Shown: piece after piece, positions 27,019-49,235 of the stretch
How the letters are laid out: each line of letters opens with the position of its first letter
Numbering within the stretch: the stretch's first letter is position 1
Source: a virus
Taxonomy: Duplodnaviria > Heunggongvirae > Uroviricota > Caudoviricetes
DNA length: 64,000 bases
Virus record (IMG/VR): IMGVR_UViG_3300034157_000063
Strand: one strand, 5' to 3'
Position numbers and translations under genes: made by a program
Notes under the pieces: model-generated
What the model was told of the DNA's origin: nothing
Databases searched by the model: none
What the model saw: only the letters and a program-made list of their open reading frames with translations

Positions 27019-27048
27019 TTGACATAATAAGCTTTTTGATGTTATTAT
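27019..27048 (+). promoter_or_regulatory. Sigma70-type promoter of the AlaRS-like unit
   Basis: TTGACA-18 nt-TATTAT with TG extension. Confidence 0.7.
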
Positions 27049-27081
27049 GTTATAGACAACTTTTATAAATAGGAGGAAGCT

Positions 27082-27105
27082 ATGTCACAGCTAAACGCAA
27101 TCTAA
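27082..27105 (+). CDS. Leader ORF MSQLNAI (zero-frame start of the AlaRS-like gene)
   Basis: Perfect AGGAGG SD 5 nt before ATG; ATG TCA CAG CTA AAC GCA ATC TAA. Confidence 0.7.
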   Translation: MSQLNAI

Positions 27106-27980
27106 TTATCGAAACATACAAAGACCATTCCAGATTATATGAATTGGACTTTCATATAAATTCATCTGTCAAAAGTCCTGACGATACAACTCTGTTTACC
27201 ACATCTGGTATGCAACAATTTAAACCCTTATATTCTAATCTAGAATACACCAACACATTTACCAACATCCAGCAATGTCTAAGAATTAATGATCTAGACG
27301 AAATAGGCGATGGCACACACTTTTTAAAATTTGAAATGATAGGTTTATTTTCATTTAGACAATGGACACTTAAACAAGCTATTGATTTCATGTATTCCTT
27401 TGTTAACAAGCTGGGTATTATTCCAGACTATGTAACTATTCACCCTGATAAATATGAAGACTGGAAAGACCTTTATTCTGAATATGGCGTTGAAATACGT
27501 TTAGATCCTGAATGTGTCTGGTCAGATGGTAGTATTGGTGGATATTGCACAGAGTTTTACAAGAACGATGTTGAGATAGGGAATATTGTGAATACAATGG
27601 ATACTTGCATAGATGTGGGTTTTGGACTTGAAAGACTGCTTGAAGTGACTGGAAGCTTAAGACCGAAAAGTAAGCTTCAAATCCTTGAAGAAACTGCTTT
27701 ATTATTGATAGACGATGGTGTATTACTTGGTCACAATAAGAAAGAATACATTTTGAAAAAACTAATCACTGAATCTATTTTTCATGGTAGTCAAATAAGT
27801 AATGAATTTTTTGATCGAATTCGTTTCAATCAAGAAAAAGCTTATTCTACTTATATGAGGAAAAGAAACCATAAACGCTTTAAAGATAAAGATTCCATTT
27901 TCTGGATGGATACCTATGGTTTTAATATTAGTCGAATGGATGAATATGTATCAGTGTTTGGAAAAAAAGAAGACTCGTAA
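27082..27980 (+). CDS. Alanyl-tRNA synthetase-like protein, catalytic core only (no editing or C-Ala domain); probably expressed by -1 frameshift from the leader
   Basis: DDTTLFTTSGMQQFK, QQCLRINDL...HFLKFEMIGLFSF, YCTEFY, VEIGNIV, IDVGFGLERL match class II AlaRS motifs 1-3. The frame is open upstream of TTG 27144 back to 27069. Confidence 0.88.
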
Positions 27981-27992
27981 GAGTCTTTTTTT
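27966..27992. terminator. Bidirectional terminator
   Basis: AAGACTC-gtaa-GAGTCTT flanked by A and T tracts. Confidence 0.8.
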
Positions 27993-28456: not shown

Positions 28457-29584
28457 TTAGTAACGGTAGCTTAGGTTAAGGTTGTTCTCGTTAGACCAAA
28501 GTCTAATAAGATTGTCTTCTTCACCCGTTGTTTTTCTGTTTGCAAAACCACGAGCTTGGACAACACAACGGTTGGATCTGACTTCAATGGTGACTTTACG
28601 TTTACCATTGACTTTCAATGACCAGATTGAGGCAGAGCCATCAATGCAAGAGTTTTTGTAGCCAAATACACAATGGTGTTGTTGTTTACCTTCATCCAAG
28701 AGTTCTTTGGATGACTTAATTTGTGTGATGGTCCATTCTTCTGCGTTATATTCATCTTTACGTTTGGTCAAGCTGAAATCTTTAAAATCATGCCCAGCCC
28801 AAGTGAATGAACCCATCTTTTTGGAACGACGAAGGTCATAGTGCCAGTCATGCATTCTCTTGGTGAGTGAGGCCAATGTCCATCCATTACCGAAAATATT
28901 GAAATTGTTGTTTTCGAGTTTTTGTGCGTTGATAAAGTCTACCAAGTCGTTAATTTGTTCAACGGTTTCTGGTGTTTTACCTTCTTGGGAGAAGAACTTA
29001 ACCACATTCTTCCAGAATTCAGTTTCATAACTCTTTTCATTGAGTTTGGATTTAGCAATACGCAACGCTGCACCCGCACGACCATCTTCTGCCAACGCAA
29101 TAGAATAAACGAGAGCTTGATCAATGGTGAGGTCAAAAGGGCAGTTAACAAACAGCAACCCTTCTTTTTTTGTCAAGAATGTTTTCAAATGTTCTTTGTA
29201 AAGAGAACCACCTGTTGCGGCACAGACAAACCATTTACGGTAACGAATGGCTGATGATTTTTTCTTGGTGTTGGTACGACCCGGAATAGATGGGCCATCC
29301 CATACTTGTTCAAGAATTTTTGGCGTTTTGTATTTTGAAAAAAGGAATTTAGCCAACATCCTTACTTTTTTATCACGATTGCTGGATTTTAACGTGTATT
29401 TAAAGCTGTCAGGATCGTTAATGGCGAACGTCAACAATTCAGGCTCAATTTCGCTGATAGCTGGCACTTCTTGTTTGGTTGAGTTTTCGACTTTAATTTT
29501 ATTGGAATGATTGGCAATAGATTGCTTGAATCGCATTTCACTGGATTCAAACTCTTCAATTTTCTTTTTATTTTGCTTACCCAT
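28457..29584 (-). CDS. PcfJ-domain protein
   Basis: C-terminal ELLDEGKQQHHCVFGY...IWSL...TIEV...QARGFANR pattern. Confidence 0.8.
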   Translation of the reverse strand: MGKQNKKKIEEFESSEMRFKQSIANHSNKIKVENSTKQEVPAISEIEPELLTFAINDPDSFKYTLKSSNRDKKVRMLAKFLFSKYKTPKILEQVWDGPSIPGRTNTKKKSSAIRYRKWFVCAATGGSLYKEHLKTFLTKKEGLLFVNCPFDLTIDQALVYSIALAEDGRAGAALRIAKSKLNEKSYETEFWKNVVKFFSQEGKTPETVEQINDLVDFINAQKLENNNFNIFGNGWTLASLTKRMHDWHYDLRRSKKMGSFTWAGHDFKDFSLTKRKDEYNAEEWTITQIKSSKELLDEGKQQHHCVFGYKNSCIDGSASIWSLKVNGKRKVTIEVRSNRCVVQARGFANRKTTGEEDNLIRLWSNENNLNLSYRY

Positions 29585-47474: not shown

Positions 47475-49151
47475 TTATTTATTTTCAACCGTCATCTTTG
47501 ATAAACATGGATAGGTTTCAATACCTAAGATATTACAGCCTTTCTCAATGACATCCTTCACTGCCGCGATCAAACATAATTTCTTATACTCTTCTTCATG
47601 TCCCAATATTTTTTCACTTTCGTAATATTTGTGGAATAAAGTACATAAGCTGACTAGTTGAGTGGTTAAATAATGACTTTGATACTCAGTACTCATTTCA
47701 TTGATAATCTCTTGAGTTTTCAAAATATTAAAGAATAAAGCATTTTCCTGATTATTTAAAATCAGATCATCAGTGATGGTCAATTTAGGTTCATTCATAT
47801 TGTATTTCTTAAACAAAATTGAATCAATCCGCACATAAGCATTTTGAAGATAAGGAGCTGAACCACCAGAAAAGTTTAAGACATGTTTCCAGTCAAACAC
47901 ATAATCTTGATGCTTGCTTAATTTTAAATCATGAAATTTAAGACCACCTACAATCGTTTTATTCAACAACTCAGTTTGTGTCTCACCTGAAAGCTTTGTA
48001 AAGTGTGGAGACTTTAATAATTCATTTTTACCTTCCATTAACAAATCATCCAAATACAATGATTTTCCTGTTTTTGTTTTGATAGGTTTGTTATCTTCAC
48101 CTAAGATGGTACCGAAACCCAAATGGATAAGCTTATTTTTATCGGTTGCATAACCTACTTTTTTAGCAATCATGAAGATTGTTTCAAAATGCAGTGACTG
48201 CCGTTTATCAACCACATACACTATTTTATCTGGGTTATGTTGTTCTACCCGCCATTTGATAGCCGCTAAATCATAGAGAGCATACAAAAAGGTGCCATTC
48301 GTTTTTTTGATGACCAGCTTGTTATTTTCAAGTTGAACATACACCGAACCATTCTCATCAACACTGGCAATTTGTTTATTGATTAAGTCCACAACGATTT
48401 CATGACAGAACTGAGCAAAGAAGCTTTCACCTTTGGTATCCGCAATGGTCAATTTGAGCTTAAATTCTTTAATTGTAGATTCTAGGTCAATCAAACTAAT
48501 ATCGACACATTTTTGCCATAATGCTAGCAATTCATCATCAAGTTTATTTTGAAGCTTGTACGCAACATTATCAGATTCAAGTGCAAATGAATTATCATCA
48601 CTTTCTTTGGATAGGTTATAGGCAGTATAGGCGAGCTTATAATACTCAGTGAGCTTTTGATTGTCCAAGTTGTTTGCTAAATCATTCTTCATAATGTAAT
48701 TGAGTAGGAAACCAAACTGATTGCCCCAATCACCAACATGATTATATGAAATAACTTCATCACCCATGTTCTGATGGCTCCGAACAACAAAGTCGCCAAT
48801 AAACATAGACCGTATATGACCGATGTGCATTTTTTTTGCAACGTTAACACCACAGTAATCGACCACCACTGTTTCTTTTGGTTTTGTTTGCACTGTTTGT
48901 GCATTCATTAAATTCATTTTGAAAGACAAAAAAGCCTTACCCGTAATTTCAATGTTTTCGTAATGAGTTGTTTTCAATAAATAAGCAATCAAGCTGGCTG
49001 TGTCAAAGTCGCCTTTTTTATTTAATTGAAAAAGAATAGATGTTTGATAATGAAAATTTTCAAAACTTGAATACGATACATCAACCGTTAACGTGATGTT
49101 TTTTGATGTCAGATAATTTTGGATATCCGATTTAATAATGGACTTGTACAT
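47475..49151 (-). CDS. argS: Arginyl-tRNA synthetase
   Basis: VVVDY...NVAKKMHIGHIRS (HIGH), NHVGDWGNQFG, YVVDKRQSLHF, KTKTG, PYLQNAYVRI (DALR domain); 558 aa. Confidence 0.95.
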   Translation of the reverse strand: MYKSIIKSDIQNYLTSKNITLTVDVSYSSFENFHYQTSILFQLNKKGDFDTASLIAYLLKTTHYENIEITGKAFLSFKMNLMNAQTVQTKPKETVVVDYCGVNVAKKMHIGHIRSMFIGDFVVRSHQNMGDEVISYNHVGDWGNQFGFLLNYIMKNDLANNLDNQKLTEYYKLAYTAYNLSKESDDNSFALESDNVAYKLQNKLDDELLALWQKCVDISLIDLESTIKEFKLKLTIADTKGESFFAQFCHEIVVDLINKQIASVDENGSVYVQLENNKLVIKKTNGTFLYALYDLAAIKWRVEQHNPDKIVYVVDKRQSLHFETIFMIAKKVGYATDKNKLIHLGFGTILGEDNKPIKTKTGKSLYLDDLLMEGKNELLKSPHFTKLSGETQTELLNKTIVGGLKFHDLKLSKHQDYVFDWKHVLNFSGGSAPYLQNAYVRIDSILFKKYNMNEPKLTITDDLILNNQENALFFNILKTQEIINEMSTEYQSHYLTTQLVSLCTLFHKYYESEKILGHEEEYKKLCLIAAVKDVIEKGCNILGIETYPCLSKMTVENK

Positions 49152-49205: not shown

Positions 49206-49235
49206 TTAAAGTCGTCTCAATAGTTTAGTGTTCAT
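49206..49235 (-). CDS. Leader peptide MNTKLLRRL upstream of argS
   Basis: GGAG SD; ATG AAC ACT AAA CTA TTG AGA CGA CTT TAA; lies between promoter and argS. Confidence 0.75.
   Translation of the reverse strand: MNTKLLRRL

Follow-up and report, generated by a model that had tools for sequence, protein, structure and literature searches.

In the window, by which we mean the whole 64,000-nt stretch of DNA analysed, a gene for a minimal alanyl-tRNA synthetase (AlaRS) lies on the plus strand (Table 1). Its reading frame opens after a TAA at 27066-27068 and has its first methionine only within the GMQQ motif. The Shine-Dalgarno (SD) sequence AGGAGG upstream of the gene is followed by an ATG that is out of the AlaRS frame, the latter being -1 relative to the short leader that begins there. 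This arrangement had been described in a first-pass annotation of the DNA, and the coordinates of AGGAGG and ATG, the frame open back to 27069 without an ATG before GMQQ and the lack of an SD-like sequence upstream of the TTG at 27144 were all borne out. AGGAGG occurs only twice on the plus strand of the window and the generalised leader pattern once, compared with no occurrence in 100 shuffles. The SD-led ATG is the only strong start, and it is conserved; an identical leader is present in independent assemblies (loci L001, L010, L011 and L097). The hairpin at the end of the gene was called by the program on the minus strand, and the T-run on the plus strand was read from the sequence. A PcfJ-like gene (28457-29584, minus strand) is convergent on the AlaRS gene and is also present in L010 and L011.

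Table 1 Features of the leader and the AlaRS gene in the window, with related features of other loci (L numbers)
Feature	Position	Strand	Remark
Sigma-70-like promoter, TTGACA, 18 nt, TATTAT, extended TG	27019-27048	+	11/12 matches, consensus match only
Shine-Dalgarno sequence AGGAGG	27071-27076	+	5 nt 5' of leader ATG; kept in homologues
0-frame leader ORF, MSQLNAI-stop	27082-27105	+	ATG at 27082, TAA at 27103-27105; would give start codon and first five residues
Proposed shift site A_AAC_GCA	27093-27099	+	X_XNN_GCN in 114/114 leaders; putative mechanism
Proposed 0-frame P-site Asn codon AAC	27094-27096	+	
Proposed 0-frame hungry Ala codon GCA	27097-27099	+	
-1 frame codon AAA at the shift site	27093-27095	+	
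-1 frame codon CGC at the shift site	27096-27098	+	
-1 frame ORF, minimal AlaRS	27096-27980	+	294 codons, ends at 27980
TTG, start chosen by gene callers	27144-27146	+	would cut off N-terminal helix
Hairpin, stop codon in loop, A-run 5', T-run 3'	27970-27992		likely bidirectional terminator
Second-family member	L326:11369-11713	-	others L390-L423, L428-L431
Hairpin of one phage clade	L002, L004, L014, L130, L132, L138, L139, L146, L151, L159		

A slip from AAC to AAA at 27093-27096 would yield a product of 299 aa, as had been claimed and as the computed translation confirmed. Its N-terminal part, which had been aligned with AlaRS by eye, is indeed related: the window protein matches PF01411 (E 1.6e-20) as well as solved AlaRS chains. 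Its score against the full alaS family TIGR00344 is 73 bits, compared with a cut-off of 457. The structure model has a mean pLDDT of 91.8, and its closest match is the catalytic fragment of E. coli AlaRS (TM 0.73). The part of the gene upstream of TTG 27144 encodes the first helix (residues 2-14, pLDDT 97-98), which aligns with its counterpart in E. coli AlaRS; a start at this TTG would therefore truncate the fold. The class II catalytic core with its Ala-adenylate pocket, the mark of an AlaRS, is present and is combined with a shortened acceptor-stem recognition part, whereas neither an editing nor a C-Ala domain is present. The equivalents of E. coli R69, W170, E209, N212, V214, D235, G237, G239 and R242 are kept in 12/12 aligned members, and five of these residues, which were counted across 90 representatives, occur in 89-90 of them.

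In E. coli AlaRS, G3:U70 is read by N303 and D400 (PMC10036535). These residues map to His213 and Asp272 in the window protein; the N303 equivalent is N or H in 63 and the D400 equivalent is D in 60 of the 90 representatives. From the conserved residues we infer that the mini-AlaRS charges tRNA-Ala. Copies in phages often adjoin tRNA-Ala genes with G3:U70. Five alphaproteobacterial genomes with the mini-AlaRS gene also hold a full-length alaS and separate matches to the editing region, and the mini-AlaRS is thus an accessory copy. In L002, L003 and L007 an 88-nt tRNA-Ala with the anticodon AGC, which is unusual for bacteria, lies upstream of the gene (ARAGORN).

The protein is poor in the amino acid whose tRNA it is predicted to charge. 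The window protein has 3 Ala in 294 residues (p about 0.001). At AT-rich leader loci Ala makes up 0.4% of the product compared with 4.0% in neighbouring proteins, which is a depletion of about ten-fold; at GC-rich leader loci it is 3.5-6% compared with 12-14%. Homologues with an in-frame start are also Ala-poor (1.8% compared with 5.3% in neighbours); residues 1-250 of E. coli AlaRS contain 6.4% Ala. The difference between leader and in-frame loci has a p of 5e-9, but it rests on few independent lineages (2 independent pairs). A copy from a Woesebacteria MAG (L083, shift site G_GAA_GCT) has no Ala in 296 aa, and an Armatimonadota copy without a leader (L074) has 1 Ala in 277 aa.

Homologues of the mini-AlaRS fall into 1033 clusters and are mostly called from internal starts or as read-through of the leader in the wrong frame. 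About 240 loci were collected from genomes, metagenomes and viruses, and 90 representatives were chosen at 85% identity. No in-frame ATG is present in 61 of these, and in 60 of the 61 the sequence X_XNN_GCN lies one base out of frame. The first-pass annotation had asked whether orthologues retain an ATG outside the frame together with the Ala codon, and they do: leaders occur in Rhizobiales, Inquilinus, phages and giant contigs. The clade of the window has AAC followed by GCA; in Rhizobium, Neorhizobium, Phyllobacterium, Inquilinus, Reyranella and Caulobacteraceae (53-71% GC) the order is SD, ATG, three codons, GAC, GCC and a stop. Among 107 leaders, Ala is encoded by GCC in 62, by GCA in 40, by GCT in 3 and by GCG in 2; the ATG lies five codons before the Ala codon in 92, and the 0-frame stop follows 0-8 codons after it. 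Between CGC and GMQ the -1 frame contains a stop in 0/62 loci, compared with 62 and 54 in the other two frames, and about 50% of the differences are at third positions. With an open frame and such a third-position bias, neither gene decay nor an error of assembly is tenable. The same frame offset is found in over 100 distinct loci with 25% to 71% GC, complete RefSeq genomes included. The recoding signal is thus real and conserved, and explanations by a pseudogene or by faulty assembly can be set aside.

The remaining 29 of the 90 representatives have an in-frame ATG, and X_XNN_GCN is absent from 26 of them. Orthologues of this kind had been named beforehand as evidence against a shift. They do exist, but they have lost the leader or have fused its ATG into the frame, which supports the frameshift model rather than contradicting it. 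L242 combines the same SD-ATG with one additional nucleotide, by which the leader is brought into frame, and with a decayed slip site; L126 is the in-frame sister of L138, and L243 is a similar in-frame fusion. Such natural fusions show that the leader ATG can act as N-terminus. According to a quick tree the shift was lost repeatedly among orthologues, and a single origin of the A_AAC AlaRS loci was not rejected (AU p 0.47; also from the quick tree). The leaders are related by descent, and these loci may form one clade, which counts against the proposal made below.

The junction itself is highly constrained. The sensor codon is Ala in 114/114 distinct leaders, and all four GCN codons are used. 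The base 5' of the P-site codon is identical to the first base of this codon in 114/114, and each of A, G, C and T occurs there; the class filter of the first family demanded this pattern, whereas the unfiltered listing of 90 loci and the second family described below did not. All twelve codon pairs keep the rule, including the four synonymous Arg codons CGG/G, CGA/A, CGC/C and CGT/T. This covariation is what slippage of one tRNA by -1 predicts, and the re-pairing in the P site proposed in the first-pass annotation agrees with it. The residue in the P site is Asn in the window and Asp, Lys, Glu, Gln, Leu or Val in relatives. Where the P-site residue is Asn or Asp, its codon always ends in C, although such codons are outnumbered elsewhere in these AT-rich genes. 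In the -1 frame the A site has CGC (107), AGC (6) or GGC (1) and never TGC; since this codon varies, the fixed GC is not a constraint of the protein. The re-pairing is imperfect, with a mismatch at the wobble position after a shift from AAC to AAA or from GAC to GGA. The sites are of the types A_AAC, G_GAC, C_CAA and T_TTA and lack an X_XXY_YYZ heptamer, which sets them apart from canonical -1 frameshifting.

Stimulatory elements are less uniform. SD sequences that stimulate frameshifting typically lie 10-14 nt from the P-site codon. In the window the distance is 17 nt, and this larger spacing counts against stimulation by the SD. In one phage clade the Ala codon is followed after 5-6 nt by a hairpin that covaries, both sides having changed in four pairs, and that is weak in the in-frame sister L115; no conserved 3' structure was seen in the clade of the window. 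A conserved RNA structure of the leader was not found, with folding z-scores near 0 and no Rfam match, and no terminator was called within the leader. Slippage of one tRNA by -1 at a hungry codon is established, including tRNA-Glu from GAA to GGA; it proceeds very slowly and requires no downstream structure (PMC6771820). Two other routes into the AlaRS frame were considered and dropped: a backward hop onto an upstream GCN, because five loci have no such GCN, and a +5 hop from AAC to AAT, because G_GAC loci have no landing codon.

We propose that ribosomes begin at the SD-led ATG, read four more codons and reach the Ala codon. With charged tRNA-Ala plentiful the codon would be read, translation would stop a few codons later and little enzyme would be made. 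With an empty A site the P-site peptidyl-tRNA would slip back by one base while at least its pairing at the first codon position is preserved; CGC (or AGC, GGC) would then occupy the A site and be read, and translation would enter the AlaRS frame, as the covariation suggests. The 299-aa, Ala-poor product could still be made during a shortage of Ala-tRNA and, judged by its conserved residues, would probably recharge tRNA-Ala as a back-up to the full-length alaS of the host, which would close a negative feedback loop. We thus infer induction upon scarcity of Ala-tRNA and a shut-off once the product has restored it. The frameshift itself is strongly supported by the comparison of homologues, and the fixed Ala codon together with the Ala-poor product makes sensing of Ala-tRNA likely. 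The complete proposal, in which a hungry Ala codon brings about a programmed -1 frameshift that provides feedback on Ala-tRNA, is in our judgement quite probable.

The leader is not restricted to AlaRS genes. A scan of IMG/VR with a DNA pattern that was blind to protein and allowed a mismatched junction gave 49 matches, 43 of which lie ahead of one of two gene families. Ten precede the mini-AlaRS and 31 a family of 100-130 aa, mostly in phage tRNA arrays; two more precede this second family with a further indel, and three precede other long -1 ORFs. The three matches that look like chance are exactly the three with a mismatched junction. As a control, the same leader pattern was scanned with a non-Ala sixth codon, and 0/59 matches precede either family, most being at ordinary gene starts. 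When the second family was collected by protein search, 33/36 loci read had an SD-ATG leader with Ala at codon six. The family comprises 618 clusters of all-helical proteins, is only mildly Ala-poor (3.0% compared with 6.4%) and is unrelated to the mini-AlaRS (hhalign 1.8%). No match was found in Pfam, PHROG, Foldseek, VIA or PDB, which does not imply a new fold. Apparently, phages deploy the cassette also for this unrelated tRNA-array protein, and it is not specific for AlaRS. Starvation, an inhibitor of AlaRS or an attack on tRNA-Ala could each be the natural trigger; the reuse before a tRNA-array protein hints at the attack.

Some single loci may be added. L381 and L306 resemble distant members of the second family. 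In L257 (1561-1875, plus strand) the same leader precedes a 105-aa ORF among tRNA genes that has a weak match to the acceptor-stem helix region of AlaRS (PF01411 376-420, E 0.035), and in L383 (5454-5708, plus strand) it precedes another unrelated ORF that is cut by the end of the locus. Two second-family genes on separate contigs (L256:9175-9249 and L286:582-656) have the leader plus an extra frame break about 20 codons on.

Other explanations have to be weighed against the proposed sensing of Ala-tRNA. The -1 shift could be real but roughly constitutive, or it could answer general translation stress or damage to tRNA-Ala, giving low-level expression without a feedback loop. The use of the cassette ahead of a protein unrelated to AlaRS, the hairpin of one phage clade, which is typical of constitutive -1 signals, and the repeated loss of the shift would all fit. 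This reading is nevertheless unlikely, as the codon is always Ala while neither the -1 codon (Arg, Ser, Gly) nor that in the P site is constant, and as the gene encodes the cognate synthetase, purged of Ala. A_AAC is also not among the efficient tetramers of E. coli (PMC4066793). Its inefficiency in fed E. coli speaks against a strong constitutive shift, and the efficiency of the shift proposed here may be low too. The event could further be placed in the A site, where tRNA-Ser(GCU) would decode GC as a two-base codon under a shortage of Ala-tRNA; the junction would then be N-S-N and not N-R-N. In the MS2 GCA case tRNA-Ser(GCU) reportedly decodes GC in this way, and the invariant GC, the varying third base and the imperfect re-pairing in the P site are compatible with it. 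Doublet decoding leaves the X_X identity in 114/114 leaders as well as the restriction of the -1 codon to CGC, AGC or GGC unexplained, and we regard it as quite unlikely.

Translational coupling, in which the leader ends and re-initiation occurs at a nearby non-ATG codon (ATT 27105 in the window, CTG overlapping TGA in Rhizobium), had been raised as an alternative for the window from the beginning. A CTG overlaps the stop in most Alphaproteobacteria, the NCBI annotation of the Rhizobium locus L012 puts the start at this CTG, and coupling could operate in Rhizobium; a near-cognate start lies by the stop in 70/107 leaders if CTG is counted and in 98/107 if ATH is added. As a general account coupling fails, since the stop wanders over 0-8 codons with ATG, GTG or TTG nearby in only 7/107. 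In addition, some loci have CTA at that position (L015, L221), ATH reflects a conserved Ile, and the fixed Ala, the X_X rule and the in-frame fusions are all left unexplained. We therefore consider coupling very unlikely. Slippage of RNA polymerase that inserts a base at the site would yield the same protein, but the runs are merely 2-4 bases of any letter and there would be no reason for an Ala codon, which makes it highly improbable. The one-base indel (pseudogene or assembly error) that had also been suggested finds some encouragement in the homologues with an in-frame ATG; it is already refuted by the conservation of the offset and of an intact ORF with third-position bias across the GC range given above, and virtually nothing is left of its probability.

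The preferred reading, a programmed slip at a hungry Ala codon, invites comparison with prfB (RF2), to which the first-pass annotation had likened the locus. Both have a shift near the 5' end that is required for the protein and is conserved across homologues, a slow A-site codon that depends on the product of the gene itself (here proposed), and lineages in which the signal was lost and the gene is in frame (PMC12421855). The likeness does not extend to the site: prfB shifts +1 at CUU before UGA with an internal SD 3 nt upstream, whereas the AlaRS leader would shift -1 at X_XNN_GCN without such an SD; its sensor is a sense codon, GCN, in place of UGA, and the position of its 0-frame stop is free. 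In our view the leader resembles prfB autoregulation in how it works yet falls outside this class, because direction, site and sensor differ. Leader-peptide attenuation and T-boxes also couple the expression of synthetases to charging of the cognate tRNA. The AlaRS leader differs from both in having no terminator or antiterminator or Rfam match, a single cognate codon and a leader that would enter the protein; it is neither a canonical -1 signal nor a T-box nor an attenuator.

The closest mechanistic relatives are cases of hungry slippage, i.e. the alternative route of dnaX, the FFR route of HIV and the suppression at GGG-GAA-AGA, in which a single P-site tRNA moves by -1 next to an empty A site; the G_GAA variant of the leader matches the last example (PMC6771820). 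The P-site pair at the first position would be kept after the shift in 114/114 leaders, with the wobble position often mismatched. Elsewhere hungry slippage is known as a by-product of starvation or a compensating route, whereas here we propose it to be programmed. According to a review from 2016 there was no known case in which hungry shifting gives rise to a functional protein specific to starvation (PMC5009743). As regards the enzyme, the mini-AlaRS of Tupanvirus is also viral, does without an editing and a C-Ala domain and charges G3:U70 tRNA-Ala, but it is eukaryote-derived, has about 461 aa and lacks the N/D pair (PMC10036535); the family described here is bacterial or phage-borne, has 270-300 aa and often keeps N/H and D. 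A literature search, mostly without subscription papers, found no description of the Ala leader or of the mini-AlaRS family.

Taken in its widest form, the proposal is a portable cassette of about 30 nt that would switch on any downstream gene via programmed one-tRNA -1 slippage when charged tRNA-Ala collapses, deployed by huge phages and rhizobia for a back-up synthetase low in Ala as well as for at least one further, uncharacterised tRNA-array protein. We lean towards this generalisation. Possibly, the cassette serves to counter a depletion of Ala-tRNA by antibiotics or by defences of the host. If true, this would be the first case in bacteria or phages in which hungry-codon frameshifting is used as an amino-acid sensor, and a third route beside attenuators and T-boxes by which a synthetase is coupled to tRNA charging. 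The leader is in any case a conserved candidate for purposeful hungry shifting, and with RHE_RS22135 on p42b of Rhizobium etli CFN 42 it is present in a cultured strain. The N-terminus is corrected for a family of over 1000 database clusters, the second phage family (618 clusters) is flagged as part of a response to the loss of Ala-tRNA, and the 299-aa AlaRS is smaller than the Tupanvirus enzyme.

The nearest IMG/VR relative of the window has 437 kb and 27 tRNAs, and no match to ribosomal protein S3, RNA polymerase beta or a full alaS was found in it. Syntenic or close relatives (L010/L095 and L097) belong to contigs of 1.86 and 1.54 Mb that are rich in orphan genes. The window also has a gene for ArgRS (47475-49151, minus strand) that encodes only 5 Arg, all CGG; a short leader at about 49206-49235 holds AGA-CGA, but its layout differs, with argS having its own SD and ATG. 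Several orphan proteins of the window (ORF ends 25757, 26992, 32963, 34620 and 35447) have a Met four residues from the C terminus and a final Ile.
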